From the NCBI GenBank assembly GCA_964343605.1, contig CAYFKJ010000002.1, positions 629,176 to 693,175 on the forward strand: DNA of 64,000 bases, written 5' to 3'. The notes beneath the pieces were generated by a model, which was given only the letters and a program-made list of their open reading frames with translations, had not been told where the DNA came from and ran no database searches. Each line of letters opens with the position of its first letter. Positions within the stretch are counted from its first letter, which is position 1. Positions 16,835-35,962 of the stretch are shown piece after piece. Source of the stretch: an uncultured Rhodospirillaceae bacterium. GTDB lineage: Bacteria; Pseudomonadota; Alphaproteobacteria; UBA2966. Position numbers and translations under genes: made by a program.

Positions 16835-16862
16835 GATTGACCGTTTCCGGGGGGATGACGCA

Positions 16863-18400: not shown

Positions 18401-18580
18401 GCCTCTAGTTATTCCGGCACGCATGGGAGATGCAATCGGGCAGGAACTCGCTGAATTCCGCGGGTCGCTTTTCCTATGGCCCGTGTCGCGACCGGGATAG
18501 AATAGCGCCCAAGCCTGGGGCGAACTGCCCCAGGTAGAAATCGGGGAGCCGCCGGGAACCCCCGCCCGGCGTTTGGTTCA

Positions 18581-19831
18581 GTGACGCGCTATTCCATCTT
18601 CAGTTTGTTGCGGAACGCCATCGGTCACCATAAGGATTGGCCGCTGGCTTGGCGCAGTCCGGACCCAAAAGCGGAATACGATGTCGTCATCGTCGGCGGC
18701 GGCGGCCACGGTCTGGCCACCGCCTATTACCTGGCCAAGGAACACGGCATCACGAACGTCGCGGTGCTCGAGAAGGGTTGGCTCGGCGGCGGCAACACGG
18801 GGCGCAACACCACAATCATCCGGTCCAACTACTTGTGGGACGAAAGCGCCCACCTCTACGAACATTCGTTGAAGCTCTACGAGGGCCTGAGCCAGGATCT
18901 CAACTACAACATCATGCTGAGCCAGCGCGGGGTTCTCAATCTGGCGCACAATCAGCACGACCTCCGGGAGCTCTCACGGCGTATCTCGGCCAACCGGTTG
19001 AACGGCATCGATTCGGAATTCCTCAACCCGGTGGACATCAAGCGCATGGTACCCCTGCTGGATGTATCGCCGCGTGCCCGCTATCCGGTCCTTGGCGCTT
19101 CCCTGCAGCGGCGCGGCGGGGTCGCCCGTCACGATGCCGTGGCCTGGGGTTATGCCAGGGCAGCGGATGCGCGCGGCGTCGATGTGATCCAACAGTGCGA
19201 AGTCACGGGTATCCTGCGTGAAGGGGGCGCGGTGACAGGCGTGGAAACCTCGCGCGGCACCATCAAGGCGAAGAAGGTCGCCCTCGCGGTGGCCGGACAC
19301 ACCAGCATGCTGGCTCAAATGGCGGAAGTCCGCCTGCCGATCACCAGTCACCCTTTGCAGGCGATGGTATCGGAACCGGTCAAGCCCGCGCTCGACCAGG
19401 TCGTCATGTCGGCTGCAGTCCACGGCTACATCAGTCAATCGGACCGGGGAGAAATGGTGATGGGGGCAGGCATCGACACGCTCACCGGCTACACCCAGCG
19501 CGGCAGCCTGCCGGTGGTCGAAGAGCTGCAGCGCGCCATCGTCGTGCTGTTCCCCTCATTCAGCCGGCTCCGTCTCATGCGCCAATGGGGCGGTATCGTC
19601 GATACCTGCCCGGACGCCAGTCCCATTATTTCCAAAACCCCGGTCGAGGGACTTTACGTCAACGGCGGCTGGGGCACCGGCGGGTTCAAGGCGACGCCGG
19701 GGTCCGGTTGGGTCTATGCCCACACCATCGCCCGGGACGAAGCCCATGAACTGAACGCGCCGTTCGCCTTGGAGCGCTTCACGACGGGCGCACTGATCGA
19801 CGAACACGGCGCAGCGGCGGTGGCCCACTGA
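18581..19831 (+). CDS. soxB: sarcosine oxidase subunit beta
   Basis: FAD motif [19 protein letters not shown]. The gene is colinear with heterotetrameric SoxB. GTG start. Confidence 0.9.
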
Positions 19832-19832
19832 C

Positions 19833-20117
19833 ATGCTGATCATCGAGTGCCCCTGGTGCGGCCCCCGCGATGAGGCCGAGTTTCAATACGGCGGCGAGGC
19901 CCATATCGTGCGTCCGGAAAAACCGGCGGAACTGACGGACGAGCAATGGGCCGAGTACCTCTTCATGCGCACCAACACCAAGGGCCGCTTCCTTGAACGC
20001 TGGATGCACAGCGCCGGATGCCGGCGTTGGTTCAACAGCGTGCGCAACACCGCCACCAACGAAATCGAGGCCGTCTACCGCATGGGCGAGCAGCCGCCCG
20101 GGGACGATGGCGCATGA
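19833..20117 (+). CDS. soxD: sarcosine oxidase subunit delta
   Basis: 94 aa with MLIIECPWCGPRDEAEF, the typical SoxD zinc-ribbon start. It lies between soxB and soxA, and its stop overlaps the soxA ATG (ATGA). Confidence 0.88.
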   Translation: MLIIECPWCGPRDEAEFQYGGEAHIVRPEKPAELTDEQWAEYLFMRTNTKGRFLERWMHSAGCRRWFNSVRNTATNEIEAVYRMGEQPPGDDGA

Positions 20118-23100
20118 GCATCCAGTCGCACCGCGTCCGCGTGGAGCAGGCGCCCGCCGCCCGCATCGACCGCTCGAAGGCCCTTTGGTTTACCTTCAAC
20201 GGCCGGCGCTATCAGGGCTTTGAGGGAGACACGCTGGCCTCGGCGCTGGTCGCCAACGGTGTCCGGTTGGTGGGGCGAAGCTTTAAATACCATCGTCCGC
20301 GCGGCCTCTTCGCTGCCGGGTCGGAAGAGCCCAACGCCATCGTCCAGGTGGAGAGCGGCGCCCAGACCCTGCCGAACCTGCGCGCAACTCAGGTGGAACT
20401 TTACGACGGGCTGACGGCGGATAGCGTCAATGCCTGGCCCAGCGTCGACTTCGATATCGGCGTCGTCAACGACCTCGCGTCGCGTTTGCTTCCAGCCGGA
20501 TTCTATTACAAGACCTTCATGTGGCCGGCGGGCTGGTGGATGACTTACGAACATGTCATCCGCCGTGCCGCCGGTCTCGGCATCGCGCCCCCGTCGGGGG
20601 ATCCCGACACCTACGACCACATGCACGTCCATTGCGACGTCCTAGTCGTCGGTGGCGGACCGACGGGACTGGCCGCGGCGCTGGCTGCGGGACGGACCGG
20701 CGCCCGCGTAATCATCGCCGACGAACAGTCGGAGCTGGGCGGCGCGCTGTTGAGCAGCCGCGCTCAAGTGGACAATGCACCGGGTCTCGAATGGGTGCAA
20801 TCCACCCTGTCCGAATTAACCGAAATGGCGGAAGTTCGCGTCATGCCGAGAACCACGGCATTCGGCCATTACGATCACAATTACATTGGTTTGCTGGAAC
20901 GCCGGTCGGATCATCTCGGACCGGGACGCGGCGGCGACAACATTACGCGCCAAAGAATCTGGAAGGTCAGGGCGGGTCAGGTGATCCACGCCGGGGGCGC
21001 CATCGAACGGCCCCTAGTGTTCGCCGGCAATGACCGACCCGGCGTGATGCTGGCATCCGGGGCGGCCGCTTACGTCAACAGATGGGCGGCTTCGCCCGGC
21101 CGGCGTGCGGTGATTTTTGCCAATAATGATTCGGCTTATGCCGCCGCCGCCGACCTGGTTGACGCCGGCGTCGCCGTGGAAGCCCTGATCGACGTACGCG
21201 GCGAACCGGGTATGGATGCCCGAACGCAGGTCGAGGCGCGCGATATCGAAATTCTGACCGGGTACGCCGTCGTGGGCACTCGAGGCCGGCGAGCCGTCGA
21301 GGGCGTCGATGTGATGCGTCTCAATGAAGACGGTACGGGTCTCAACGTGGGCGACAGGAAAATCGAATGCGATCTCGTCGCCGTTTCCGGCGGTTGGAGC
21401 CCCGCCGTCCATCTCCATTGCCACGCCGGGGGCAAGGTTGCGTACGATGCCATTCAGGGCTGCTTCGTGCCCGGCGCGACGACCCAGGCGGCGCGGTCAG
21501 CCGGCGCCGCCAACGGTCAGTTCGAGTTGGCCGAGTGCCTGTCCAGCGGTTGGCAGGCAGGTGCGGATGCCGCCGATGCGCAAGGCTTCCGCAAGCCGGG
21601 AAGGGCACCCAAGCCGCCTTCCGCCGAGTTTGTTTCGACGGCGCCGCCACGCCATCTCTGGACGGTTCCGGCCAAGCCGGGGCGGCAAAACGGCGTCAAG
21701 CGCTTCGTCGATCTGCAGCATGACGTGACCGACGCCGATATCCGGCTGGCGGCGCGGGAGGGCTATCAGTCGGTCGAACACCTCAAGCGATACACGACGC
21801 TGGGCATGGGTACCGACCAAGGCAAAACGTCCAACGTGCCGGGCCTCGCGATTCTGGCGGAAGAACTCGAAAAGCCGATTCCGGAGGTTGGCACGACCAC
21901 GTTCCGGCCGCCCTATACCGCCGTCACCATGGGGGCGATCGCCGGCCGTCATGTCGGGCAGATGCTCGATCCCTTGCGCCGTTCGCCCATGCACCACTGG
22001 CACGAGGACCACGGCGCCGCCTTCGAGGACGTGGGGCAGTGGAAACGGCCGTGGTTTTACCCACGTGAGGGCGAGGACATACATGCCGCGGTCGATCGCG
22101 AATGTCTGGCGGCACGCAACGCCATCGGCATTCTCGACGCCACCACGCTTGGCAAGATCGACATCCAGGGTCCCGACGCCGCCGAATTCCTCAACCGGAT
22201 CTATACCAATGCCTGGTCCAAGCTGGAAGTCGGCCGCTGCCGCTACGGTCTGATGCTGGGCGAGGACGGCATGATCATGGACGACGGCGTAACCTCCCGC
22301 ATCGCCGAAAACCGCTATCTGATGACGACGACCAGCGGCAACGCCGCTGCGGTTCTGGGCTGGTTGGAGGAATGGCTGCAGACGGAATGGCCGGATCTCC
22401 GCGTCTACTGCAATTCCATATCGGAATACTGGGCGACTTTGACGATCAGCGGGCCGCTCGCCCGCAATCTGCTGGCGGAGCTTTGTACGGATATCGATCT
22501 TTCCGCGGACGCCTTCCCGTTTATGTCCTGGCGCGAGGGGACAGTGGCGGGAACGCCGGCCCGCATCTTCCGCATCAGCTTCACCGGCGAGGTGAGCTAC
22601 GAGATCAACGTCGGCGCCTCACACGGCCTCGGCCTCTGGCAGACCCTGATGACGGCCGGCGAGAAATACGGCATCACCCCCTACGGCACCGAGAGCATGC
22701 ACGTGCTGCGCGCCGAGAAGGGCTACATCATCGTGGGTCAGGATACCGACGGTACGATGACGCCCGGCGATTGCGGCATGGATTGGATCGTCTCCAAGAA
22801 AAAGCCGGATTTCATTGGCAAACGGAGCCTAAGCCGGCCCGATACCGTGCGCGGGGATCGCAAGCAACTCGTGGGTCTGTACACCGAAGATCCCTTGCAG
22901 GTGCTGCCGGAGGGAGCACAAATCGTCGACGATCCCGACGCCGCCCTGCCCATGCCGATGATCGGGCACGTCACGTCGAGCTACCACAGCGCCAACCTTG
23001 GCCGCTCCATTGCCTTGGCGGTGGTCAAGGGAGGGCTCGGTCGGATGGGTGAGACCGTACATCTGCCGCTGGAGAACGGGCGCACGGCGCGGGCCGAAAT

Positions 23101-23149
23101 AACCGGTACTGTGTTCTACGACCCTGAAGGGGAGAGGCTCCATGGCTGA
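20114..23149 (+). CDS. soxA: sarcosine oxidase subunit alpha
   Basis: About 1010 aa with an N-terminal 2Fe-2S-like/NAD region, an FAD Rossmann (VLVVGGGPTGLAAA) and a C-terminal GcvT-like folate-binding domain. Confidence 0.9.
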   Translation: MSIQSHRVRVEQAPAARIDRSKALWFTFNGRRYQGFEGDTLASALVANGVRLVGRSFKYHRPRGLFAAGSEEPNAIVQVESGAQTLPNLRATQVELYDGLTADSVNAWPSVDFDIGVVNDLASRLLPAGFYYKTFMWPAGWWMTYEHVIRRAAGLGIAPPSGDPDTYDHMHVHCDVLVVGGGPTGLAAALAAGRTGARVIIADEQSELGGALLSSRAQVDNAPGLEWVQSTLSELTEMAEVRVMPRTTAFGHYDHNYIGLLERRSDHLGPGRGGDNITRQRIWKVRAGQVIHAGGAIERPLVFAGNDRPGVMLASGAAAYVNRWAASPGRRAVIFANNDSAYAAAADLVDAGVAVEALIDVRGEPGMDARTQVEARDIEILTGYAVVGTRGRRAVEGVDVMRLNEDGTGLNVGDRKIECDLVAVSGGWSPAVHLHCHAGGKVAYDAIQGCFVPGATTQAARSAGAANGQFELAECLSSGWQAGADAADAQGFRKPGRAPKPPSAEFVSTAPPRHLWTVPAKPGRQNGVKRFVDLQHDVTDADIRLAAREGYQSVEHLKRYTTLGMGTDQGKTSNVPGLAILAEELEKPIPEVGTTTFRPPYTAVTMGAIAGRHVGQMLDPLRRSPMHHWHEDHGAAFEDVGQWKRPWFYPREGEDIHAAVDRECLAARNAIGILDATTLGKIDIQGPDAAEFLNRIYTNAWSKLEVGRCRYGLMLGEDGMIMDDGVTSRIAENRYLMTTTSGNAAAVLGWLEEWLQTEWPDLRVYCNSISEYWATLTISGPLARNLLAELCTDIDLSADAFPFMSWREGTVAGTPARIFRISFTGEVSYEINVGASHGLGLWQTLMTAGEKYGITPYGTESMHVLRAEKGYIIVGQDTDGTMTPGDCGMDWIVSKKKPDFIGKRSLSRPDTVRGDRKQLVGLYTEDPLQVLPEGAQIVDDPDAALPMPMIGHVTSSYHSANLGRSIALAVVKGGLGRMGETVHLPLENGRTARAEITGTVFYDPEGERLHG

Positions 23150-23747
23150 TCCCTTGAGGCAAAGCGCCCTGGCGCATCTCCATCTCATCGCCCGGGCGGA
23201 AGCTTCGCCGGCCGATGCCGGGGTGGTTCTGGGTGAGCGAGGATTCCGCAGTCAATGGACATTGCGCGGGCATTTCGAAGATGAAGTGTTTACTGCCGCG
23301 GTCTTAAGCGAAACCGGCAGCGCGCCGCCGCTCAAGCCCAATACGGTTCATGCCAGCGGCGGCATCGAGGTGCTGTGGCTCGGTCCCGACGAATGGCTGG
23401 TCGTGGGGCCGGACGGCTCCGAGGTCGGTAAAAGGCTGGGCGAAGCCCTTAAGGACACGCATGCCGCGGCAACCGAAGTTAGCGAAAGCCGAACGTTGAT
23501 AGCGTTGTCCGGTCCCCATGCGCGCGATGTCTTGGCGAAGGGCTGTGCCCTTGATCTGCATCCCAGCAAATTTGCCGCCGGTCAGTGCGCCCAGTCGACG
23601 CTCGGCCATATCCACATTATTCTGCATCAGCGAACGAACGAGCCTGAGTTCGACATATTTGTCCATCGCAGCTTCGCCGAATCCCTGTGGCAGTGGCTGG
23701 AAGACGCCGCCGCCGAATACGGCGTGGCGATTTCAAACCCCTCATAA
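23142..23747 (+). CDS. soxG: sarcosine oxidase subunit gamma
   Basis: 201 aa directly after soxA with an 8-nt overlap, carrying the SoxG family signature. Confidence 0.85.
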   Translation: MADPLRQSALAHLHLIARAEASPADAGVVLGERGFRSQWTLRGHFEDEVFTAAVLSETGSAPPLKPNTVHASGGIEVLWLGPDEWLVVGPDGSEVGKRLGEALKDTHAAATEVSESRTLIALSGPHARDVLAKGCALDLHPSKFAAGQCAQSTLGHIHIILHQRTNEPEFDIFVHRSFAESLWQWLEDAAAEYGVAISNPS

Positions 23748-23762
23748 CAAGCGGATGAGTCC

Positions 23763-24980
23763 ATGAGCAGTATCGACGACATGCCCCGTCTGATCCGCAT
23801 CGACAACGGCGAACGCCTGCCAGCGACATTCAGCCAGGCGGAGATGGACCGCCGTCTGGCGGGCGTCCGCGGACATATGGCCGAGGCGGAACTCGATGCG
23901 GTTCTCTTCACGTCGTACCACAACGTCAACTACCACGCCGATTTCCTCTATTGCGCCTTCGGACGTCCGTTCGGCGTGGTCGTGACGGCCGATGACAGCA
24001 CGTTGATTTCGGCCAACATCGACGGCGGGCAGCCGGGACGGCGCAGTCCCGGAAATTTGGTCTACACCGATTGGCAGAGGGATAACTTCATTGCGGCCGT
24101 GCAGCAGTTGGCGGGCGGGGCGATGCGGCTGGGCATCGAGTACGACCACGTCACGTTGGATGTCCGGGCCAAGCTGGAAGCGGCGCTGCCGGGTGTCGAA
24201 CTGATCGATGCGGCCCTGGCGGCAATGAAACGGCGCATGGTCAAATCGCCCGAGGAAATCGTCCTCATCAAGAACGGCGCACGGACGGCCGATATCGGCG
24301 GTGCCGCCTGCGTCGAAGCGATTTCGGAGGACGTACCCGAATACGAGGTCGCCAACCACGCCACCGCAGCCATGATCCGGGAGATCGCCAAGACTTATCC
24401 AGACAGCGAACTGCGCGATACCTGGACCTGGTTCCAGTCCGGCATCAACACCGACGGCGCGCACAATCCGGTAACCTCGCGCAGGCTGCAATCGGGAGAT
24501 ATCCTCAGCCTGAATTGCTTCCCCATGATCGCCGGTTACTACACGGCATTAGAGCGCACGCTGTTTTTGGACCACGCCTCGGAACGCCACCTGGAGCTGT
24601 GGCAGATTAACTGCGAGGTCCACCGCCGCGGCCTCGAACTGATCAGGCCCGGTGCACGCTGCTGCGATATCGCTCTGGAACTCAACGAAATCTACCGCGC
24701 CCATGGTCTCCTGGACCGCCGCACGTTCGGCTACGGCCATTCCTTCGGCGTGTTGTCGCATTACTACGGGCGCGAGGCGGGTCTCGAGCTGAGGGAGGAT
24801 ATCGAAACCGTGCTGGAGCCGGGCATAGTCGTCTCGATGGAACCGATGATCATGATCCCCGAAGGCCAGCCCGGCGCCGGCGGCTACCGGGAGCACGATA
24901 TTCTCGTGCTGACCGAGGACGGCGCCGAGAACATCACCAAATTTCCCTTCGGGCCGGAACACAACATCGTTTCAGGCTGA
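23763..24980 (+). CDS. creatinase (creatine amidinohydrolase, M24 family)
   Basis: By my recollection it is near-colinear with Pseudomonas putida creatinase (SANIDGGQP...VYTDWQRDN...TWTWFQSGINTDGAHNPVT...LSLNCFPMIAGYYTALERTLFLDH...FGYGHSFG...GGYREHDIL...ENITKFP). Confirm by BLASTP. Confidence 0.88.
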   Translation: MSSIDDMPRLIRIDNGERLPATFSQAEMDRRLAGVRGHMAEAELDAVLFTSYHNVNYHADFLYCAFGRPFGVVVTADDSTLISANIDGGQPGRRSPGNLVYTDWQRDNFIAAVQQLAGGAMRLGIEYDHVTLDVRAKLEAALPGVELIDAALAAMKRRMVKSPEEIVLIKNGARTADIGGAACVEAISEDVPEYEVANHATAAMIREIAKTYPDSELRDTWTWFQSGINTDGAHNPVTSRRLQSGDILSLNCFPMIAGYYTALERTLFLDHASERHLELWQINCEVHRRGLELIRPGARCCDIALELNEIYRAHGLLDRRTFGYGHSFGVLSHYYGREAGLELREDIETVLEPGIVVSMEPMIMIPEGQPGAGGYREHDILVLTEDGAENITKFPFGPEHNIVSG

Positions 24981-25032
24981 TAGGCTATCATTGCGACAAA
25001 TGGCCTAATCCCTGTCTTGAGGAACATTCGGC

Positions 25033-26202
25033 GTGAGCGACCGCAATATTGCCAGCGTCAGTTGGGGCGATCATGTCGTCTTCGGCGACGGCGATGGCAA
25101 TTTGCGTACCGCCGATTCGCTGAAACGCCGCCTGGATGTCTGGCGGGATGAACTCGGATGCGGCGTCCTCCACTGGCGGGTGGAGAATTTGGGCATACCA
25201 GTAAAATTTCACACCCCCGATGGAAGTCGCCATCCCTATCTGGAGCGCTTCGGCAGCGTCGCAATCGATGAATTCATGGACGTGCCAGACGCCGCTCGGG
25301 ATGCGGGGTTACAATCATATCTCTACGTCACGCTGTTCGACGAAGGTTGGCCTTTACCGCCGGCGGAAGAACGCGCAGTGAGTTATCACAATGACATGCA
25401 CTGCCAGCATGTCAGCATTCAAACACAGTTTTGCGCGGATCATCCCGAGTTCATGATGACCGACAGGGAGGGGAACGAACGGCAATGGGGCGTGGTTTGT
25501 TTGGCCTACGAGGAAGTGCGCCAGGAATTTACAAACCGCTTTTGCCGTCTTATCACCGATACCGGGTATGACGGGCTATTCGTTTGTCTCCGGTCCCAAT
25601 CCCGGCCTCCCGAATTTGCCGATCAGTTCGGCTACAACGAACCTGTCCGCCAGGACTACGCCGAAATAAAGAAACGCGATATCGACGAGGGAAATTTCGA
25701 CGAACACTGCTGGCGGCAGTTGCTCGGGAGCTATCTAACATCGTTCCTGGAAGAGTTGCGTGCCGAACTCAAAAAACTGGAAAAGAAGCTTGCGGTGGGC
25801 GGTCCGCGAGGCGACACGCTTGGCCCGCCCCTTGGAAACGGAGAGTTGCAGTGGCGCGACTGGGCAAAGCGCCACCTCGTCGATCAGCTTGTCATCGAGC
25901 AGAGCTCATCGCGTTGCCCGTCGATTGGTCATAACCTCTGGCCGATGCACAGAGGCGGCGGATATGTTCAGAACTACATCGACGGCAGCGGCATGCCGCC
26001 GCTTCTGGAACATCTTGCCGATGACTACAGCCCGGTTTTCGAAAACAGCTCCGCCGCGCTTTATGTCGCTCGCCAATGGGCGGAACGCGACGAGGATTTT
26101 GAGACGGCACTTACCAGCGTGCCTGGTTTGGAGGGCCTGGTTTTCAGCACCTTCCGTCACGACAATCCCGAGGCGCTTGCCAGAGGGGATTGGCGGTATT
26201 AA
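25033..26202 (+). CDS. hypothetical protein, possible glycoside-hydrolase-like (GHL/COG1649-like) TIM-barrel; atypical low GC
   Basis: 389 aa with a GTG start and no signal peptide. The motif VVCLAYEEVRQEFTNRFCRLITDTGYDGLFVCLRS is reminiscent of YngK/GHL10-type proteins, but this is uncertain. GC content is noticeably lower than in the flanking genes. Confidence 0.45.
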   Translation: MSDRNIASVSWGDHVVFGDGDGNLRTADSLKRRLDVWRDELGCGVLHWRVENLGIPVKFHTPDGSRHPYLERFGSVAIDEFMDVPDAARDAGLQSYLYVTLFDEGWPLPPAEERAVSYHNDMHCQHVSIQTQFCADHPEFMMTDREGNERQWGVVCLAYEEVRQEFTNRFCRLITDTGYDGLFVCLRSQSRPPEFADQFGYNEPVRQDYAEIKKRDIDEGNFDEHCWRQLLGSYLTSFLEELRAELKKLEKKLAVGGPRGDTLGPPLGNGELQWRDWAKRHLVDQLVIEQSSSRCPSIGHNLWPMHRGGGYVQNYIDGSGMPPLLEHLADDYSPVFENSSAALYVARQWAERDEDFETALTSVPGLEGLVFSTFRHDNPEALARGDWRY

Positions 26203-26277
26203 GCAGAAAATGGTCGAGCCCCGCCTCATCGGCTCGATTTCCCATCGCAGGTATTCGAATGACCAAGATTGGAATCA

Positions 26278-26832
26278 TTAGGATCGCCGATAGGTGTAGA
26301 CGCCGTTTTTCCTGCCCAAATGCGAAAATAATTCTGACCGAGAGATGGACGTCGGAACCCAGCCGGCGACCGGAAACATCCATACCGCCATCATTCCATC
26401 CTCTTTCAGCACCCTGTGCATTTCTGGAAGCAATTTATCCAATGGCAGAGTTGGAAATGGCAATACGCCGAACAGAAGACACAAGTCGACGCTCGCGTTC
26501 TCCAAGCCGGTGTTGAGCGCATCGCGGCGCACCACTTCGACATTGTCCAACCCGGCTCGGCGGACTTTGTTCGTCACCTTCTCGACATAGTGGGAGACCG
26601 GGTCCATGGCGATGAGGCGGCCGGTGTTGCCGATCATTTCTGCCGCCGGCAGGGTGAAGAAACCCGTGCCGCAACCAACCTCCAGAACGGTTTGTCCGGG
26701 TTTCAGGTCGGCCCCTTGCAACGTTTTCCGGGGATCCATCAACCGCTCCCGCAACCGGCTTTCCATGGATACGCCGCCGGGCCAGGAGAGAACGTTCATA
26801 AACCAGGATTTGCCGAGATCTTCGGTATTCAT
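26278..26832 (-). CDS. class I SAM-dependent methyltransferase
   Basis: Motif I VLEVGCGTGFF, post-I acidic residue (IAMD), motif II/III region. Confidence 0.7.
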   Translation of the reverse strand: MNTEDLGKSWFMNVLSWPGGVSMESRLRERLMDPRKTLQGADLKPGQTVLEVGCGTGFFTLPAAEMIGNTGRLIAMDPVSHYVEKVTNKVRRAGLDNVEVVRRDALNTGLENASVDLCLLFGVLPFPTLPLDKLLPEMHRVLKEDGMMAVWMFPVAGWVPTSISRSELFSHLGRKNGVYTYRRS

Positions 26833-26884
26833 GATCGATATCCGATCCGGGATTGCTGATCAGGCATGAAGGAAGATTGGCAGC

Positions 26885-27493
26885 TCACTGTGAGGTCAGG
26901 TAAGCCCGAATGAGCTTCTTGGCCTTCGCCAGGTCTTTTTTCGAGAGCTTTTTGGCGATCCGTTTCCTGGCTTTGAGGGCGTTTTCCTTAAGTTTGCCGT
27001 GGGAATTGGTGATGCACAGCGACAACCACTTGAGGGCCTCAATGGCGTTGTCCTTGCCGCCCTTCGCCTTTTCCAAACGAAGCGCAACGACGTACTGCGC
27101 ACGGGCGTAACCGTTTTGCGCCGCGTTCATATAGAGCTCAAACCCGGTCGCCGGGTTCTTCTCGACGCCCTGTCCCTTCATGTACATCAGCCCGAGGCTG
27201 AACTGGGCCTTACCGTAATCTTGTTCCGCCGCCCTTTCGTACCATGCAGCGGCTTTGGCAAAGTTCTTCTTGACGCCATAGCCGCGACGATAGAGTAAGC
27301 CCAGATTGGCCTGAGCTCTCGGGTCGCCGGATTTTGCGAGAGGCAGCCATTCGGCATAGGCTTTTTTGTAATCCTTGACCTTGAAAGCAGCGACGCCTTC
27401 GGGAAAGCCCGCCTGGACTGCGGTCGGTGCGGCGGTTAAGACGACAAGGCCAATGATCAGCAGGCACAAAATCAGTGCGCGCATCGTGGTCAC
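26885..27493 (-). CDS. secreted Sel1-repeat (TPR-like) protein
   Basis: Signal peptide followed by 4-5 Sel1 repeats (AQANLGLLYRRGYGVKKNFAKAAAWYERAAEQ...). Confidence 0.75.
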   Translation of the reverse strand: MTTMRALILCLLIIGLVVLTAAPTAVQAGFPEGVAAFKVKDYKKAYAEWLPLAKSGDPRAQANLGLLYRRGYGVKKNFAKAAAWYERAAEQDYGKAQFSLGLMYMKGQGVEKNPATGFELYMNAAQNGYARAQYVVALRLEKAKGGKDNAIEALKWLSLCITNSHGKLKENALKARKRIAKKLSKKDLAKAKKLIRAYLTSQ

Positions 27494-27562
27494 CTTGTTC
27501 CTTTCCCTGGCAAGAATACTACTCCGCCCACGATTGAGAAAATAGGTTGAACACCTGAGTGC

Positions 27563-28714
27563 TTAGCGCGACAGCACCCGGATGCGACTTTCCATGTCCG
27601 AGCGATCGATATAGAAGCCCTTGAGATGGCGGTGACCGGTTTGCGGGTGAAATTCCGCCCGGCCATGAAGAACACGGCGGTTGTCGAATACCACCATTTC
27701 CCCGGCCGTAAGTTCCACCTCGACGAGATAGGTCGGATCCCGTACCAATGCCATAAACCGCCGATAGGCGTTGTAGTAAGCCGGAATTTGATCGGCCGGC
27801 ATGTCAAACGTATCGGCGAGATGGGCGTTGAACGCAATCATGCTGATCTCGCCGTCTCCATTTACCGTGATGACGGGCCGGTGGACACGGATGTCTGCCG
27901 AACTGTCGTGAAAACGGTAGGGAAGGGCTATGTTGGCCAGCAACTCGAAACATTCGGGTTCCTCGGCCCGAAGATCCTCCGCAATCCGCAATCCGTCACA
28001 AAAGAGTGATCCCCCGCCCTCGGCGCTGTTGCTTATGCAATGCAGGAACTGGTAGCCCGGCGGAATCTCCTGGTTCGGTAGATCCGTGTGCAGCGGCAGG
28101 CTATCGGCTGTGTATGCCGAATTGTTGGGGTCCGGTTTGCTGACGACATCGAAGGTCGTGTCGAAGTTGGAGTTGCGCATCGGCCCGATCCGATTTCCGA
28201 GTTCGAGTCCGGCATCCTCGCGCGCGTCCAGACCCTCGACGATGGCGAGCCCGTGCGATGAAGCGGTCCGCAGGCAGGTCAACAGACCTTCGTCACCGGA
28301 CAGCAGGTCCATCGCCGCGAAGCGTGGAATGGGCATACCTGAAACGGCATCCCATGAGACCCAGTCCACTCGGCCCGGGTCGTCCCTGTGTCGACCCGGC
28401 GCGTGTGAATAGAGCCAGGCCGCCGAAAAACGGCTTTTGTCCCCGACGTCGGGCCATGACAGCAATATTTCGTCTTCACCGGGCGTGTGTTCGATGGCGC
28501 TCGGTGAGATGTCGGCGGCAACGCTTAGGAGGTCGAAAGTCCGTTCGCGCGTATCCGGATGGAAGCCGGAGGGATCGTTGTCGCGGAGCCAGAGGAAAGG
28601 AAAAGCGCTTTCTACTCCGTCCGCCCACAGGATGACGAGGGCGTCGTCGCCCCGTCTGATACCGTTGATCTGCATGAGAGAAACTCCATCATGGTAAGTT
28701 GTTCGGAAAAACAA
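27563..28714 (-). CDS. gamma-butyrobetaine hydroxylase-like Fe(II)/2-oxoglutarate dioxygenase (TauD/TfdA fold with DUF971 N-domain)
   Basis: I recall it as colinear with eukaryotic BBOX1/TMLH (LMQI..., LHTD facial triad, GGxSxxxDG, FDNRRxLHGR). Confidence 0.75.
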   Translation of the reverse strand: MFFRTTYHDGVSLMQINGIRRGDDALVILWADGVESAFPFLWLRDNDPSGFHPDTRERTFDLLSVAADISPSAIEHTPGEDEILLSWPDVGDKSRFSAAWLYSHAPGRHRDDPGRVDWVSWDAVSGMPIPRFAAMDLLSGDEGLLTCLRTASSHGLAIVEGLDAREDAGLELGNRIGPMRNSNFDTTFDVVSKPDPNNSAYTADSLPLHTDLPNQEIPPGYQFLHCISNSAEGGGSLFCDGLRIAEDLRAEEPECFELLANIALPYRFHDSSADIRVHRPVITVNGDGEISMIAFNAHLADTFDMPADQIPAYYNAYRRFMALVRDPTYLVEVELTAGEMVVFDNRRVLHGRAEFHPQTGHRHLKGFYIDRSDMESRIRVLSR

Positions 28715-28843
28715 TTACGCATGACATCTGCCGGCGGCGGCCACCACCAGCCAATCTTGGCTGTACGAACTCTCTTGCACGGAGCCATGGACGTCTCGCA
28801 GATAGGTTCCTGCGGCGATGTTAACCAGCAGCGGGACGATTTG

Positions 28844-29758
28844 TCAGCCCAAAATTGAGCCACCGACTTCGTCGGTACGGACCCAACCTTCCTGGCCGTG
28901 AATGAAGCCGTTCGCCGTGGGCTCGCCGTCGATCAAGCTGTCCAGCACCAGCCCGCTTTCCTCCTCGTCCAGATGCCCGTCCAGGAGGTTGCGGAAGACG
29001 TCGGCGACGGCGACCATATCGGCGCTGTGTGGCGACAGGCGGAACATGCCGACACCCTCTTTCGCCAAGCTTCTGACCTCGCCGACAAGGCTGACGTAGG
29101 AATGGGAGATCGTCTGGGTGCCGTTGACCGCGAGGAACGGGCGGCGGTCCAGGGTTTCCACGTCCATGCCGTCGGGATCCTGCTCGCAAACGTACTGGCA
29201 GCCGTCTTTGCTCAAATTGTGGGCGCGGGCGTGGTAGCACCGGGCCGACAACGCCAACGGCAGGCGGCCGAAGGCCTGCAACTCGATTTCCGTCAAGTTC
29301 GCCGCGGCAATGGCGGCAACGGCGTCACCGGGAAGTTCGGCGGGCAGACAAATCCGCCGCGCGCCGTTGGCGACGAGATAGGCGACTGTGTCCTCGTTGT
29401 AGACGTTGACGTAAGGCCCGACGCAATGGGGCTTGCCCATCAGCAGCGAAGCGGTAGCGATATCGTTGGCTTCGATTTCGAAATCGTCGTTTTGGCAAAG
29501 CTCGCGGGCCGCCGCCTGTTCCCGCTCGCTCATAATCAGGGCGAGCGAGGAAAGCACGACCTCCTTGCCGGCGGCCCTGAGCCGGTCGACGACCTCCGGC
29601 AAATAAGGCGTGAAGAAAGGCTCGCGCTTCGAACAGACCACTTCGCCGACGTATACCGCGTCGACAGGACATTCGTCGGCCATGCGGAAATAGAAATCCC
29701 GTTTTTCCTCGGCGGGCCAATTGAAGATCAAAGGGCCCAGAGACAGTTTTGCGGTCAT
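28844..29758 (-). CDS. ubiV: U32-family protein UbiV (O2-independent ubiquinone biosynthesis)
   Basis: Peptidase-U32 fold protein of about 300 aa immediately downstream of a larger U32 paralogue and an SCP2 protein. Cys residues are present for a 4Fe-4S cluster. Confidence 0.7.
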   Translation of the reverse strand: MTAKLSLGPLIFNWPAEEKRDFYFRMADECPVDAVYVGEVVCSKREPFFTPYLPEVVDRLRAAGKEVVLSSLALIMSEREQAAARELCQNDDFEIEANDIATASLLMGKPHCVGPYVNVYNEDTVAYLVANGARRICLPAELPGDAVAAIAAANLTEIELQAFGRLPLALSARCYHARAHNLSKDGCQYVCEQDPDGMDVETLDRRPFLAVNGTQTISHSYVSLVGEVRSLAKEGVGMFRLSPHSADMVAVADVFRNLLDGHLDEEESGLVLDSLIDGEPTANGFIHGQEGWVRTDEVGGSILG

Positions 29759-29769
29759 GTCGGGTATCC

Positions 29770-30762
29770 CTAGCGCCAGGCTTTTTCGTAAGCGCCGGCG
29801 GTTTCGCGCTGGCCTTCCGTCAGTTCATCGAGATTGTTGATGGGGGCAGGATTGCCGGCCGCCTGGGCGTCGACGGCGGCGCGGAAGGCCTTGACGACCT
29901 GGGCGACGTAGGCCCGGCCCCGTTGGCGGCCCTCGATCTTGAGGGCCACGACGCCCGCTTCGACCAATTCGGGCAACATGCCGGCGGCGTTGAGGCTGGT
30001 GGGCTCTTCGAAGAGGTACGAGCTTTCGCCCTCGGCGACGAAGCGGCCTTTGCAGAGTGTGGGGTAGCCCGCGGATTCGCCGTCGTTGAACACATTGATG
30101 GTGAACTCGCCGAGGCGGGAGACGAGGCCGTCACCACGTTCTTCGTAGCGTACATGGCTGGCGGGCGAACAAACCCCGGTCAGGTTGGGCGACTTGCCCG
30201 TCGCATAGGAGGAGAGCGCGCAGCGCCCCTCGGCCATTACGCAGAGCCCGCCAAAGGCGAACACTTCGGTTTCCACGGGGATTTGCTTATTGAGGGCGGC
30301 GATTTCAGCCACCGTCAGAACGCGCGGCAGCACAATGCGCCGGACGTCGAATTCGCGGTGGAAAAAGTTGATCGCTTCGGCGTTGGAGGCTGACGCCTGC
30401 ACGGAAAGATGGCGCCGCAGGTCAGGATGGTAGTCCGTGCAGTATTTGAGCAGGCCGATATCGGCCAGGATCACGGCATCCGCGCCCAACGCGGCGGCAT
30501 CGTCGACGGCGCGGCGCCATGGGCCCGGGTCGCCGGCCTTGGGAAAGGTGTTGATGGCGACGTAGACCTTGGCGTTCCTTTGGTGGGCGTAGGCCAAACC
30601 TTCCCTTAGCTCTCGGCGATCGAAGTTGAGGCCGGGAAAATTCCGCGCATTGGTTTCGTCGCGAAAGCCCAGGTAGACCGTATCGGCGCCGGCATCGACA
30701 GCACTGCGCAGTGCGGCCGGCGTGCCCGCCGGGCAGACGAGTTCGAGCGGTTCGTTGATCAT
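29770..30762 (-). CDS. ubiU: U32-family protein UbiU
   Basis: U32 core (ELVCPAG...AGADTVYLG...) of about 330 aa with conserved Cys. It lies between the SCP2-domain gene and ubiV. Confidence 0.75.
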   Translation of the reverse strand: MINEPLELVCPAGTPAALRSAVDAGADTVYLGFRDETNARNFPGLNFDRRELREGLAYAHQRNAKVYVAINTFPKAGDPGPWRRAVDDAAALGADAVILADIGLLKYCTDYHPDLRRHLSVQASASNAEAINFFHREFDVRRIVLPRVLTVAEIAALNKQIPVETEVFAFGGLCVMAEGRCALSSYATGKSPNLTGVCSPASHVRYEERGDGLVSRLGEFTINVFNDGESAGYPTLCKGRFVAEGESSYLFEEPTSLNAAGMLPELVEAGVVALKIEGRQRGRAYVAQVVKAFRAAVDAQAAGNPAPINNLDELTEGQRETAGAYEKAWR

Positions 30763-31436
30763 CCGGATTTCCTCGCGCGGGCTTTTTCGCGGCGCAGTTT
30801 CCTTTCCAGATCGTCGATCCGGCTTTCCAGGCGCTCGATTGTCGCGGCCTGGCCGTCTGCGCGGCGGTCCAGCGGGCGCACCGCGGCGCGGCGCACCATC
30901 TCCAAGTCCTGGGCGGCGCGCTCGTAGGTCTTGGCCAGCACCCCGGCGGCTTTTACGCCAGCCCGGGCCAACGGGGCGGGCAGGGGCGCCAGATCGGCCA
31001 ACCTGATTTCGGCCCCGTCCATGGCGTTGCGCAGCGCGACGACGGCTTCTGTATCACCCTCGAACGTCAGTTCGCGGGAGAAGAACAGGGCGTCGCCGTC
31101 GACGCGGCCTTCCAGCAGGTCGACCAGGACTTCAACCGGTCCGCGGACGGCGGCCAGGGCGTTGGCTTCGTCCTCCGGTCGGGCGCTGCGCAGTTCGGGA
31201 CGCTCGCGGTCGAGGGTCAGAACTATGCTGACGGGAAGATCAGTCGGGTCGATCAGAAGCGTTTCATCGCCTTCCCCGCTGCCCATGTCGGGGAGGCGTT
31301 CGAACAAGTGCTCGTGGCGTTTCAGCAACATGTTCATGGTGGCGGACAATGCCCGGTCGATGACTGCGCGCGGCACCGGACGTAGGAACATCCCCGCAAT
31401 CAATGCGGGCGTTAAAGGGGGGGATGATTGCTTCAT
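30759..31436 (-). CDS. ubiT: SCP2-domain lipid-carrier protein UbiT
   Basis: An N-terminal SCP2 sterol-carrier-like domain of about 150 aa plus a C-terminal charged tail, overlapping the ubiU start by 4 nt (yhbT-yhbU-yhbV order). Confidence 0.65.
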   Translation of the reverse strand: MKQSSPPLTPALIAGMFLRPVPRAVIDRALSATMNMLLKRHEHLFERLPDMGSGEGDETLLIDPTDLPVSIVLTLDRERPELRSARPEDEANALAAVRGPVEVLVDLLEGRVDGDALFFSRELTFEGDTEAVVALRNAMDGAEIRLADLAPLPAPLARAGVKAAGVLAKTYERAAQDLEMVRRAAVRPLDRRADGQAATIERLESRIDDLERKLRREKARARKSG

Positions 31437-31525
31437 GGGGTGTATTTAGCCGACCTCGCAGCGCCTGTCGAATAGTCGCTCCGGAGGCACCCGTGGGGCC
31501 TTGATGATGGTCAAGCTGAGTGAGC

Positions 31526-32284
31526 TTAACCCCTTCCGACAAACGGCATTTTGGTCGCCATCACGGTCATGAACTGCACGTTGGCCTCCAGCGGCAGGCT
31601 CGCCATGTGAACGACAGCATCCGCGACGTGTTTGAGATCCATCAGGGGCTCCGCCTTGATCGATCCGTCGGCCTGCGGCACGCCGTCGGCCATGCGCATG
31701 GCCATCTCGGTCTTGGCATTGCCGATATCGATCTGGCTGCAGGCGATGTCGTGGACCCGGCCGTCGAGCGACGTCGTTTTGGTGAGGCCGGTGATGGCGT
31801 GCTTGGTGGATGTGTAGGGCACCGAAAACGGCCTTGGCGCATACGCGGAGATTGAACCGTTGTTGATGATGCGGCCGCCCTTGGGATCCTGGTCCTTCAT
31901 CAACCGAAAAGCTTCCTGGGTGCAGAGGAAGGGGCCGGTCAGGTTGATGTCGACGACGGACCGCCATTGTTCGACGCTGAGTTCATCCAGCGGTATGCCG
32001 GGTGCGTTGACGCCGGCGTTGTTGAACAGCACGTCGAGGCGGCCATAAACCTCTTTGGTTTTGGCGAAAAGGGCAGCGACGGAGGCCGGGTCGCTGACGT
32101 CGGTGGGCACGACCAGCGCCCGTTCGGCGGCATCGCCCGACAAAGTCCTGGTTTCCTGCAAGGGGTCCTCGCGGCGGCCGGCCAGAACGACTGCGTAACC
32201 GTCCTCCAGCAGCGCCAGCGCCGATGCCCGCCCGATACCCGACCCGGCACCCGTCACAATGGCTATTTTTCCTTGTCCGCTCAT
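31526..32284 (-). CDS. SDR family oxidoreductase
   Basis: [12 protein letters not shown] and S...YxxxK (YTSTK) motifs. Confidence 0.8.
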
Positions 32285-32467
32285 CGATTTGCCCCTTCAT
32301 GTCGTTGAATTCCGACAACATAACGCCGAAGCCCCGGTCTGGTAAGAGTCGCCCGAAAAAAAGAGCCATTCCACCCATCAAGAAATTTGAATACAGTATA
32401 CAAAATAATTATTCGTACCGGCCATGATCGAATAACGGCGGGCTGGGCAACATCGGGGGAACGCGTC

Positions 32468-33199
32468 GTGGACCGCTCCAAGCTGAAAATTCTCGTCTTT
32501 CAACACCATCCTATCGAACATGTCGGGCGATTCGCCCGGCTGATGGAATCGGACGCGGTTCACCGCCATGTCGTGCAGTTGGATCGGGGCGACGAAATTC
32601 CGAAGCTCGACGACTTTGACGGATTGTGGGTTTTCGGCGGGCAAATGCAGGTGTGGGAGGAAGCGGAGAACCCTTGGCTGGTGCCGGAAAAGGCGGCCAT
32701 CCGTGAGGCCGTTGAGAACTTCGGCATGCCGTACTTCGGTGTTTGCCTGGGCCACCAACTGCTGGCCGACGCGCTCGGCGGAGCCGTCAACCGAATGGCG
32801 GACCCGGAGGTCGGCAATCTCGACATCGAACTAACGTCAGAGGGGCGGCAAAGCCCCTTGTTTGAGGGCATCTCAACGCCGCAGGTGTTCACCCAAGGTC
32901 ACGGCGCAGAGGTTTCCGTTCCGCCCGCCGGGACACGTGTTCTGGCAAGCTCACCGGCCTGCGCCGTGCAGTCCATGCAGGTTGGGGAAAGGGCTTTCAG
33001 CGTCCAGTTTCACCCGGAACTGACGCCTGAAATGATCGTCGAGTGTCTGGAGATTCCGGAATACCAGGTCGAGTTTGACGCCATGCTCGGTGAGGCCGGC
33101 ACCAAAGATCTCATCGCCTCAAGTACCGAGCTCGCATCCCGGTTCGACGACCTGACAGCCCAACTGTACGAAAACTGGATGACGGCCTGCTTCGGTTGA
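32468..33199 (+). CDS. class I glutamine amidotransferase-like protein
   Basis: Catalytic GVCLGHQ and the HPE triad region (QFHPE). I prefer the GTG start at 32468; the track ORF begins at 32387. Confidence 0.65.
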   Translation: MDRSKLKILVFQHHPIEHVGRFARLMESDAVHRHVVQLDRGDEIPKLDDFDGLWVFGGQMQVWEEAENPWLVPEKAAIREAVENFGMPYFGVCLGHQLLADALGGAVNRMADPEVGNLDIELTSEGRQSPLFEGISTPQVFTQGHGAEVSVPPAGTRVLASSPACAVQSMQVGERAFSVQFHPELTPEMIVECLEIPEYQVEFDAMLGEAGTKDLIASSTELASRFDDLTAQLYENWMTACFG

Positions 33200-33202
33200 G
33201 TT

Positions 33203-33967
33203 CTATACGAGCGTGACGTTAACGCCGCAAAGTTCAAACCGACTGTCGTCGGTCATGAGGCCCCGCTGATCGGCCGCCGCCAAGATGGCCGATCGATTTT
33301 GCGGCGTCAGCAACAGCCCCGAAACGCCGGGACCGCGGCCATCCTCTGTTTTGACAAAGTGGAGCGTGGCGTTGTCGAGCGGCAGGCAAGGCCCCTCCGA
33401 TCCTGTCTTGGTCCGCCCGCCGACAACCCGGGCCCAAAGGTCCGCCATGCCGCCGGGATCGTCGGACTGGATCTGAAGTCCCACCATCGCGGCGGTGACG
33501 TCGGTTTGCATGTGGTTGCGCCAGTCCGGCCCCGCCCACTCCCAGTCCGCGGCTTCGATGTGGAAATCCGGCGCAGCCGCCATCGAATCGATGGACAGGA
33601 TGGCGCCGCCGACATCGGCCGGGTGGAAGTGCGTGGCGAAAGCGTTGGGTCCGTCGTGGCGCCATACGTCGCGGATGCCCAGGGCGGTAATGCGCTCACG
33701 CTGCGGGATGGCGTCCTCGCATTGCAGGATGACCATGTATCCGCCGTTGCCGCCGCGTCGTTCGAGATAGCGCCCCGCCGCCGTGCCGGCTTGCGTAGGC
33801 GCCACGACTTCGAGGAAGTTACCGCCAACGGCAAACAAGGCGTTTTCCAGGCCGAATTCCGCCACCCCGGGATCGCGGTAGCATTCCTCTAACCCCAATA
33901 CCGAACCGATCTCCTCAATCGCAGGATCAAGCTTTTCCGCTACAAAGACAAATTGGCGTAGACGCAT
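33203..33967 (-). CDS. VOC/glyoxalase-like domain protein
   Basis: A glyoxalase-like domain pattern is repeated twice. I prefer the start at MRLRQFVFV; the track extends to 34081. Confidence 0.5.
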   Translation of the reverse strand: MRLRQFVFVAEKLDPAIEEIGSVLGLEECYRDPGVAEFGLENALFAVGGNFLEVVAPTQAGTAAGRYLERRGGNGGYMVILQCEDAIPQRERITALGIRDVWRHDGPNAFATHFHPADVGGAILSIDSMAAAPDFHIEAADWEWAGPDWRNHMQTDVTAAMVGLQIQSDDPGGMADLWARVVGGRTKTGSEGPCLPLDNATLHFVKTEDGRGPGVSGLLLTPQNRSAILAAADQRGLMTDDSRFELCGVNVTLV

Positions 33968-34118
33968 ACAGTATCCTTCAAACCGTTGTTGGGCACCGAC
34001 GGTAGCACACAGGATCCGCGGACGTGAACTTGCGGTAAACGATTTGCGAAGTTTGCTCAACCCGCCCCTTTCCTGTTTCATGGCCCGGCAGGAATGATTT
34101 GCTAGTAGGGAAGAAATC

Positions 34119-34916
34119 GTGACCCAGGAAAACGACTACGACGTGAGTGCGGCAAATCTGCAAGCTCTGGCGGCCGAACTCATCGAGGCTTTGCGCATCC
34201 GCACCATCCCCATCGGCATGAAATTGTTCGAGGACGCGGCGGACATGCACAACATCAAGGGCGTGCGTGCGCCCACCGAGGATTTCCATTTCACCATGTG
34301 CCAGATGGTGGGGCAGTCGCGAACCGCCGGTTTCACATTGGGCATCGTTCACGAAAACACCCGCATGAACAGCAATTGCGGCGGCGTTGCCGGACTGAAT
34401 GCGCCTTCGGAAAGCTTCCTGTCCGGCGAACAGATGGACGGCGTCTGGTTCGGCAACCGCGAGGCATCGCGAGCGCATCAGGCGGAAATGGTGCGGGTGG
34501 AGCCCAAGTATCAGGGACTATGCGTCTCGCCCTTGCGTTCCGGCCGCCTGGACCCGCCCGATATCGTGCTCTTTTACGCCAACCCGGCGCAAACCATCCT
34601 GTTCGTCAACGGGCTGCAATACAAACGCTATAAGCGCTACGACATGACTATCACCGGCGAAACGGCCTGTTCGGATTCTTGGGGTCGGGCCCTGGCGACC
34701 GGCGAAACATCGATTTCCATCCCCTGCTACGCGGAGCGCCGCTACGGCGGCGTTGCCGACGACGAAATGCTGCTGGCCATGCCGCCCGACGAGTTCGCGC
34801 GCGGTATCGAAGGCTTGCGGGGCCTGGGAAGGGTGGGATTGCGATACCCCATTCCGCCGTATGGCACCCAAATGGATCCGGCGCACGGTATGTCGGCAAG
34901 TTACCCTGGTAAGTGA
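34119..34916 (+). CDS. DUF169 domain protein
   Basis: Pfam DUF169-like signature (FTMCQMV...CGGVAGLN...CSDSWG). Confidence 0.6.
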   Translation: MTQENDYDVSAANLQALAAELIEALRIRTIPIGMKLFEDAADMHNIKGVRAPTEDFHFTMCQMVGQSRTAGFTLGIVHENTRMNSNCGGVAGLNAPSESFLSGEQMDGVWFGNREASRAHQAEMVRVEPKYQGLCVSPLRSGRLDPPDIVLFYANPAQTILFVNGLQYKRYKRYDMTITGETACSDSWGRALATGETSISIPCYAERRYGGVADDEMLLAMPPDEFARGIEGLRGLGRVGLRYPIPPYGTQMDPAHGMSASYPGK

Positions 34917-34931
34917 CGACGGGAGGATGGA

Positions 34932-35762: not shown

Positions 35763-35962
35763 CATTCGCGCCCCTCCAAAAATTTAGCTTAAATGCCAAC
35801 TACTTAGGCCTTGCAAAGGCCCAAGTGGCTCCCCATATGCCGATTACGCAATCGTTGAGATTGTCCTCGACAAAGGCAAACCGTCGGAAACGGCGGGACG
35901 CAAAGCTTCGTACCTAAGGCTCACAGAGCTACGGCGGACGAGTTACCGAAAGGAAAGTAACG

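Follow-up and report, generated by a model that had tools for sequence, protein, structure and literature searches.

A probable junction of unrelated genes, carrying two uncharacterized enzyme families, beside the creatinase-soxBDAG genes of an uncultured Rhodospirillaceae bacterium

This study concerns four adjacent genes at positions 25033-28714 of a stretch of DNA referred to below as the window (64,000 nucleotides of contig CAYFKJ010000002.1, assembly GCA_964343605.1, from an uncultured Rhodospirillaceae bacterium). The genes encode a 389-amino-acid (389-aa) protein, a class I S-adenosylmethionine (SAM) methyltransferase, a secreted Sel1-repeat protein, and an Fe(II)/2-oxoglutarate (2OG) dioxygenase related to gamma-butyrobetaine hydroxylase (GBBH). 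A sequence-only reading had taken them for a low-GC islet, possibly acquired as one cassette. We consider it likely that the region is a junction of unrelated genes, not an acquired cassette, with the gene histories and roles proposed below. What looked like an islet would then be ordinary gene adjacency, with two uncharacterized enzyme families as useful by-products of its analysis.

Synteny with related genomes

The closest homologue of the dioxygenase (79% protein identity) is carried by contigs L089 and L090, in which the gene order is PhyH-DUF169-Glyoxalase_3-GATase-SDR-ubiT-ubiU-ubiV-dioxygenase-Sel1-methyltransferase-creatinase-soxGADB. The window has the same order apart from the gene of the 389-aa protein. 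In a blastn comparison with L089, two collinear blocks, 18462-24981 (83.8% identity) and 26281-36631 (79.3%), flank a segment of 1,299 bp (24982-26280) that faces 14 bp in L089, where the stop codons of the creatinase and methyltransferase genes abut. A third relative, L121, whose creatinase is 80% identical, likewise has no 389-aa gene after creatinase. Since L089 shows the same order without the 389-aa gene, this gene is a clean single-gene indel, separate from the trio dioxygenase-Sel1-methyltransferase, which is inherited local synteny between ubiTUV and creatinase-soxBDAG. The suggestion of an acquired block thus fails, the trio being syntenic in both contigs and only the 389-aa gene differing. 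We infer that the indel is a gain in the lineage of the window; loss in the sister lineage is a less likely alternative.

The 64-kb window contains no tRNA genes, and no repeats above chance flank the 1,299-bp segment. An 11-nt direct repeat at 24941 and 26237 (1,296 bp apart) was considered as microhomology at the indel and ruled out, as it is located 40 bp inside each boundary and belongs to one of 23 chance-level repeat families.

Features of the region and its flanks

18581-23747, soxBDAG, left flank, in an operon-like run with the creatinase gene
23763-24980, plus strand, creatinase (creatine amidinohydrolase), left flank; Creatinase_N and Peptidase_M24 domains
24982-26280, unstranded, window-specific 1,299-bp segment (single-gene indel), from blastn against L089
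25033-26202, plus strand, 389-aa protein, from the list of open reading frames (ORFs)
26214-26237, plus strand, inverted repeat TCGAGCC-N10-GGCTCGA followed by TTT, 3' of the 389-aa ORF, found by direct reading
26278-26832, minus strand, class I SAM methyltransferase, 184 aa; Pfam Methyltransf_25/31/11
26885-27493, minus strand, secreted Sel1/TPR-like repeat protein; Pfam Sel1; probable start at 27484, giving 199 aa
27563-28675, minus strand, Fe(II)/2OG dioxygenase, 370 aa; TauD and GBBH-like_N domains; the mechanical ORF reaches a TTG at 28714
28844-31436, minus strand, ubiT-ubiU-ubiV, O2-independent ubiquinone biosynthesis, right flank; NCBIfam equivalogs

All four ORFs are real and as first described. 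The creatinase that had been placed upstream of them was confirmed by its match to the Pseudomonas putida enzyme 1CHM (638 bits, E = 5.7e-191), and the gene at 23763-24980 thus encodes a genuine creatinase. The three ubiquinone biosynthesis genes exceed their NCBIfam cut-offs (UbiV, 369 versus 275; UbiU, 530 versus 440; UbiT, 68.6 versus 46.9). The dioxygenase, Sel1, and methyltransferase genes are co-directional with gaps of 69 and 52 bp, and the likely start of the dioxygenase is the ATG at 28675, giving 370 aa and matching database entry P0121. With low confidence, the inverted repeat at 26214-26237 might act as a weak terminator; the terminator scan did not pick it up, and both promoter and terminator scans of the region remained at background level. 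The O2-independent ubiTUV genes lie directly upstream, on the same strand, of an O2-dependent dioxygenase, an adjacency also seen in L089 and L090.

Base composition

The GC content of the region is 0.571, compared with 0.602 +/- 0.021 over all 3,682-bp windows (z = -1.5), and 6.5% of positions in the 64-kb window are as low or lower, with a minimum of 0.552 at about 43.2 kb. By gene, in the order of the map, the values are 0.572, 0.564, 0.563, and 0.589 against a mean of 0.605 (SD 0.029) over 55 ORFs, and third-position GC (GC3) of the four genes is 0.65-0.71 against 0.731 (SD 0.067), each gene being within 1.5 SD; the comparison ORFs were chosen heuristically, and a few are possibly in the wrong frame. 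The reported drop after the creatinase gene is therefore present but weak (z = -1.5), and the low-GC islet dissolves into normal gene-to-gene variance, with lower stretches elsewhere. Moreover, since the dioxygenase, Sel1, and methyltransferase genes of L089 are likewise about 0.03 below the GC content of their locus, the mild AT-richness of the trio is a property of the genes and not a mark of recent arrival.

The lowest-GC stretch of the window, 40500-47500 (GC 0.51 at 40.5-41.5 kb), is more deviant than the supposed islet; it spans TRAP transporter genes and a DUF294/CBS nucleotidyltransferase gene as well as an intergenic gap at 40842-41271.

Co-occurrence of the four genes

Outside the lineage of the window, the four genes never co-occur across 83 + 82 + 3 homologous loci. 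Searches with tblastn found relatives of the methyltransferase, Sel1 protein, dioxygenase, creatinase, Ubi, and Sox proteins within +/-10 kb in 0/83 loci of the 389-aa family, and relatives of the methyltransferase, Sel1, and 389-aa proteins in 0/82 loci of the dioxygenase subfamily. Three loci with methyltransferase homologues are unrelated to one another and contain neither Sel1 nor dioxygenase genes. In the Thalassospiraceae metagenome-assembled genome (MAG) GCA_964490815.1, homologues of the 389-aa protein (57% identity) and the methyltransferase (67%) occur on different contigs (L001 and L175). The methyltransferase homologue of this MAG sits among aldehyde:ferredoxin oxidoreductase genes.

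These counts bear directly on the proposal of a horizontally acquired, AT-rich four-gene cassette that makes or modifies a trimethylammonium compound. The four genes are indeed adjacent and all slightly below the mean GC of the window, and the dioxygenase is GBBH-like. However, the GC values fall within the normal spread, a relative without the 389-aa gene has the trio in synteny and with an equal AT shift, the 389-aa gene is a separate indel, no co-occurrence was seen in any of the homologous loci, and the tRNA and repeat scans revealed no mobility signatures; hence we regard such a cassette as extremely unlikely.

Since the trio members are distributed independently elsewhere, they probably do not form one pathway either. 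A lineage-specific functional operon, in which, for instance, a periplasmic Sel1 adaptor is combined with a methyltransferase acting on the metabolite of the dioxygenase, would fit the single strand, the short intergenic gaps, and the order retained in L089 and L090, all of which speak against our reading. Yet the close relationship with L089 (about 80% DNA identity) makes a shared order expected by descent; methyltransferase or Sel1 relatives accompany the dioxygenase subfamily in none of its 82 loci; and the methyltransferase homologues stand alone in unrelated contexts, the promoter and terminator scans being uninformative. We therefore consider such an operon unlikely.

The 389-aa protein: family and fold

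The 389-aa protein has 881 homologues that are 54-64% identical to it, almost all about 389 aa long, labelled "hypothetical" in their sources, and devoid of Pfam domains. Together with a confident structural model, they settle that the ORF is coding. Among species represented by one genome each, the family is found in 170 of 185,579, and all 80 fetched species loci are from MAGs of at least seven phyla, the sources being Alphaproteobacteria, Acidobacteriota (Vicinamibacterales), Chloroflexota, Desulfobacterota, Rokubacteria, Verrucomicrobiota, and Actinomycetota. The protein has no Pfam match at E <= 0.01, no NCBIfam match, and no sequence match in the Protein Data Bank (PDB), in agreement with the earlier remark that it has no confident family. 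As also remarked there, it has no signal peptide on direct reading. Nor did direct reading reveal a wall-binding domain, and the protein is predicted to be cytoplasmic. We found no characterization of the family in the literature.

The AF2 model (pLDDT 87.3, pTM 0.90) is a confident (beta/alpha)8 barrel, most similar to that of Cwp19. The family profile A1 gave no match in PDB, and only the broadened profile A3 reached solved structures, namely Cwp19 (E = 8.6e-6) and the GH156 sialidase (E = 1.6e-5). The glycoside-hydrolase-like flavour of a TIM barrel, noticed at first from a short motif, is thus borne out. An exhaustive profile search yielded 972 representatives at 50% clustering. Distant relatives (27-35% identity) are multidomain proteins of 560-1,480 aa that combine GHL10 with Laminin_G_3 (ConA-like lectin) or HEAT domains, and only these distant relatives match Pfam GHL10 (PF02638), whereas the 389-aa protein itself does not. 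The family is related to both GHL10 (Cwp19) and GH156 and is a standard member of neither.

The family alignment has a mean column identity of 65%, and its invariant motifs follow the predicted beta-strands: SWGD(13)H, FD(103)EGWP, DGLFVC(185)LR(187)SQS, AD(197)QFGFN, R(259)GD, LVD(284)xLVIxQ(290)xSSxC(295)PS, LWPMH(306)RG, ARQW, and FRxDN. Residues conserved throughout the superfamily are D13 (just after beta1), R49, R163, D180, D197, W227-R228, N269, and D284; D103 and R187 are nearly invariant across it, and R259 is also kept in the 389-aa family. Known catalytic residues were placed by HMMER alignment in preference to MAFFT, since HMMER leaves the beta4 "DG" strand in register; a MAFFT placement of a Cwp19 fragment, with DDY under ADQF, conflicts with HMMER and was set aside. 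A colinear "offset 15" pairing of GH156 R129/H134/R202 with R114/H119/R187 was likewise ruled out by the profile alignment, which places R129 on T100 and leaves R114 and H119 in a family-specific insertion.

One could still view the protein as a canonical GHL10 enzyme of the Cwp19 type, that is, a cell-wall or exopolysaccharide glycosidase or a lytic transglycosylase, the fold being closest to Cwp19. This we judge to be highly unlikely: the Pfam GHL10 model does not match, neither a signal peptide nor a wall-binding domain was seen on direct reading, Asp195-Asp196-Tyr197 of Cwp19 align to Cys-Leu-Arg, the protein is equally close to GH156, and 50-60% identity between members from different phyla points to a small-molecule substrate that has been conserved.

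Genomic context of the 389-aa family

Most neighbourhoods of the 389-aa gene resemble lineage-specific synteny. At 9 of 82 loci, however, it is tightly packed on the same strand within 5 kb of NeuB, HAD, or CTP_transf_3 genes. At these loci, which show two operon architectures and represent at least two phyla (Desulfobacterales, Chloroflexota/Anaerolineae, and one deltaproteobacterial MAG), a KdsC-like HAD phosphatase and a CMP-sugar synthetase accompany NeuB, and other partners are an NAD-epimerase, an aminotransferase, an SDR protein, an ABC exporter, an aldehyde dehydrogenase, and an FkbM methyltransferase. No gene of the NeuC, PseG, or LegG type was recognized among the annotated genes of the NeuB operons carrying the 389-aa gene. 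The copy in the window is an orphan, with no NeuB or CMP-transferase gene within the 64 kb.

Because about one-eighth of the loci are co-directional with NeuB, the KdsC-like HAD phosphatase, and the CMP-sugar synthetase, we suggest with modest confidence that the 389-aa protein is a cytoplasmic glycosidase-type enzyme whose substrate is a nonulosonic acid derivative or the activated precursor of one. The stronger proposal, that the family is a previously unrecognized cytoplasmic nonulosonic-acid enzyme, a GH156/GHL10-related barrel using the superfamily-invariant Asp13 together with Arg187 and Arg259 on a ulosonic acid in activated or glycosidically linked form or on its nucleotide-sugar precursor, for instance as a non-orthologous replacement of a NeuC/PseG/LegG-type nucleotide-sugar hydrolase, is tentative and on balance unlikely.

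Two further neighbours recur. A 178-aa protein without a Pfam match is encoded about 50 bp upstream of the 389-aa homologue at 10 loci (for instance, L059 9380-9916), and an ABC1/UbiB-type kinase immediately downstream at eight; either lineage synteny or a second functional association may account for them. In a Chloroflexota NeuB operon (L022 9996-12659), a 170-aa ORF is followed by a 579-aa ORF that overlaps the aldehyde dehydrogenase gene; tblastn nonetheless matches the full 389-aa query at 10001-11158. A frameshift, pseudogene, or assembly error may account for the broken ORF.

The dioxygenase: family and substrate pocket

The dioxygenase matches the TauD/TfdA family (PF02668, 144.6 bits versus a gathering threshold of 27) with the HxD...H triad present, and scores 291.8 bits against the GBBH model TIGR02409 (cut-off 414.75) and 276 bits against the TmpA model NF049936 (cut-off 400). 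The closest solved structures are TmpA (180 bits), DfmD (161), and human GBBH, BBOX1 (155). Its colinearity with BBOX1, including the DUF971 N-domain, had been pointed out at the start and is upheld by the Pfam domains and by alignment with the structure database. The N-domain (DUF971/GBBH-like) reads DNDPSGFHP and lacks the Zn-binding cysteines. Some database entries name homologues gamma-butyrobetaine dioxygenase, and the subfamily is common in marine Rhodobacterales and relatives; the literature search returned no characterization of it.

Pocket residues were tabulated for the 120 closest homologues in human BBOX1 numbering, with residue roles taken from PMC9296572. Residues F177, N191, Y194, H202, D204, H347, R360, Y366, H294, and A296 are present in all 120, F181 in 119, N292 in 118, and A293 in 114; specific for the subfamily are L205 (119/120), N207 (120/120), and G228 (106/120). 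Thus the iron ligands H202/D204/H347, the 2OG-binding R360, and the aromatic cage 177/181/194/366 (F, F, Y, Y) are kept. Within the GBBH/TmpA clade, the dioxygenase represents a distinct subfamily, marked by an invariant N-A-H-[LI]-A motif, and it probably binds the anionic end of its substrate differently from BBOX1 and TmpA. No TmpB-type (HD-domain) partner and no carnitine genes were seen near it.

An ordinary bacterial GBBH making L-carnitine, which is then degraded to glycine betaine, would agree with the best NCBIfam match (the GBBH equivalog model, 292 bits), the conserved cage residues, N191 and N292, and the names of several database entries. On the other hand, the score is well under the curated cut-off of 415, the changes N293 to A, A294 to H, R296 to A, Y205 to L, and D228 to G are essentially invariant in the subfamily, the nearest solved structure is TmpA and not BBOX1, and no carnitine dehydrogenase-type genes were seen to adjoin. 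This identity therefore seems rather improbable. Of the carnitine-type hydroxylation that was proposed initially, a quaternary amine substrate remains plausible given membership in the GBBH clade and the preserved cation-pi cage, whereas gamma-butyrobetaine itself is not supported, given the sub-threshold score and an acid-binding motif unlike that of BBOX1.

Genomic context of the dioxygenase

Many members of the subfamily sit among housekeeping genes. Recurrent neighbours at other loci are MttB (five loci), DMGDH-like oxidases (five), aldehyde dehydrogenases of the Aldedh family (four), and GMC oxidoreductases (six). Three arrangements can be distinguished. In the window and L089, creatinase-soxBDAG lies beside the dioxygenase gene. 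In L121, the latter is found with MttB and a DMGDH-like oxidase, creatinase-sox being nearby. In L091 and L094-096, a HAD-SDR-dioxygenase group adjoins MttB, a DMGDH-like oxidase, a corrinoid protein, DUF1638, and MTHFR. Genes for an MttB homologue (50734-52314), a DMGDH-like oxidase of DAO-FAO_M-GCV_T architecture (53360-55864), and a GbdR/CdhR-type regulator with DJ-1/AraC domains (61142-62149) are likewise present in the window. Judging by gene content, the window appears to be a region of methylated-amine catabolism, comprising soxBDAG, creatinase, MttB, the DMGDH-like oxidase, and the GbdR/CdhR-type regulator.

Because these recurrent neighbours are genes of methylamine catabolism, the dioxygenase is most likely a catabolic hydroxylase of a quaternary ammonium compound other than gamma-butyrobetaine and 2-(trimethylammonio)ethylphosphonate (TMAEP), the substrate of TmpA. 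The same neighbours (MttB/MtgB-type proteins, DMGDH-like oxidases, aldehyde dehydrogenase, creatinase/sarcosine oxidase) argue against the biosynthetic role that had been suggested for it together with the methyltransferase.

In L121 (5690-14054), the order is rearranged: the DMGDH-like, MttB, and dioxygenase genes are adjacent, followed by a sensor kinase and then by creatinase-sox. The PAS/HATPase sensor kinase is apparently split into two ORFs. The L121 dioxygenase is only about 52% identical to that of the window, though the creatinases share 80%, and it may be a paralogue.

The methyltransferase, the Sel1 protein, and an additional ORF

The methyltransferase (Methyltransf_25, 64 bits versus 27) reached the cut-off of no NCBIfam equivalog. 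It belongs to a large, well-conserved alphaproteobacterial class I SAM family: of its 1,760 homologues, the top 120 are 63-79% identical to it. Its assignment by PADLOC to "mad2" was rejected as generic similarity of the methyltransferase domain. The Sel1 protein (Pfam Sel1, 61.9 bits) is far below the cut-offs of the MerG, AlgK, and MotX models; its N-terminus, MRALILCLLIIGLVVLTAAPTAVQA, is signal-peptide-like on direct reading, and the gene calls of L006 and L089 give it a length of 199 aa. Farther to the left, on the minus strand, a 306-aa ORF (16139-17059) with coding-like GC3 and no Pfam family lies between genes of an NMT1/THI5-like binding protein and a PpiC-type rotamase.

Discussion

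The events and functions that we propose for this junction are as follows. A 1.3-kb single-gene insertion would have put the 389-aa gene between the convergent creatinase and methyltransferase genes. Its product would be a barrel in which the beta4 Asp-Asp of Cwp19 is replaced by Cys-Leu and which lacks Arg129 and His134 of GH156, and it could act in the cytoplasm, as a glycosidase-type enzyme, on an anionic sugar, for instance a derivative of a nonulosonic acid or a precursor in nucleotide- or phospho-sugar form. The dioxygenase would catalyze the first oxidative step in the catabolism of a quaternary ammonium compound, and its product could feed the route from glycine betaine via dimethylglycine and sarcosine to glycine that is encoded around it.

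Of the elements of this scheme, the ORFs, folds, homologies, residue patterns, the indel, and the lack of co-occurrence are observed, whereas the direction of the indel, the substrates, and the physiological roles are inferred. Several points count against parts of this scheme. The direction of the indel is derived from just two comparison genomes. The correspondence of residues with those of Cwp19 and GH156 is based on weak sequence alignments, with E values from about 1e-5 to 0.2. The link to nonulosonic acids is seen in only about 12% of the loci of the 389-aa family, most members having unrelated neighbours. Similarly, most Rhodobacterales members of the dioxygenase subfamily are found among housekeeping genes, and the catabolic context occurs in a minority of loci.

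The 389-aa family is the more novel of the two, being tightly conserved, unnamed, and without a Pfam model or a cultured host. The family connects GHL10, a group not yet classified, with the GH156 sialidases, and it is repeatedly found in NeuB/CMP-sugar operons, both in Desulfobacterota and in Chloroflexota; it is a candidate enzyme for a step of the bacterial nonulosonic-acid pathways that is missing or takes an alternative form, and it could serve as a test case for the change of catalytic residues in glycoside-hydrolase-like barrels. The dioxygenase subfamily is widespread in marine Alphaproteobacteria and is routinely annotated as gamma-butyrobetaine dioxygenase, with a pocket unlike those of both characterized relatives. 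It is a candidate entry enzyme for a marine quaternary-amine osmolyte feeding glycine-betaine demethylation.

Comparison with characterized systems

In Cwp19 of Clostridioides difficile (GHL10, PDB 5OQ2), Asp195-Asp196-Tyr197 at the end of beta4 were proposed to be catalytic (PMC5765458); in a weak alignment, they correspond to Cys185-Leu186-Arg187 of the 389-aa protein. The inverting exosialidase EnvSia156 (GH156, PDB 6RZD) uses Asp14 as the base, His134 as the acid, and Arg129/Arg202/Asn346 as a carboxylate-binding triad (PMC6811678). Of these, Arg129 aligns to Thr/Ser100 and is not kept, the general acid His134 has no clear counterpart, Arg202 is within one residue of R187, Asp14 resembles D13 by position only, and N346 is not aligned. 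Further, the GH156 sialidase is catabolic and about 500 aa long; the 389-aa family is shorter and is found in operons of a biosynthetic type.

TmpA (TMAEP hydroxylase, PDB 6NPB), BBOX1, and the dioxygenase share a two-domain architecture, a GBBH-like N-domain with a TauD core, and TmpA, like the dioxygenase, has no zinc cysteines in the N-domain. The acid-binding motif is N-A-H-[LI]-A in the subfamily, compared with N-N-A-T-R in BBOX1 and N-N-R-S-S in TmpA. In the carboxylate site of BBOX1 (PDB 3MS5/4BG1), N191 and N292 are retained and N293, A294, and R296 are changed to A, H, and A, respectively, while N287 and R288 of TmpA, which bind the phosphonate, correspond to A and H. Relative to BBOX1 and TmpA, the dioxygenase also carries the changes Y205 to L, A207 to N, and D228 to G. 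Finally, at the level of gene content, the third arrangement of the dioxygenase locus, as seen in L091, matches the MtgBCDE/DUF1638 system of glycine-betaine demethylation (PMC12478193).

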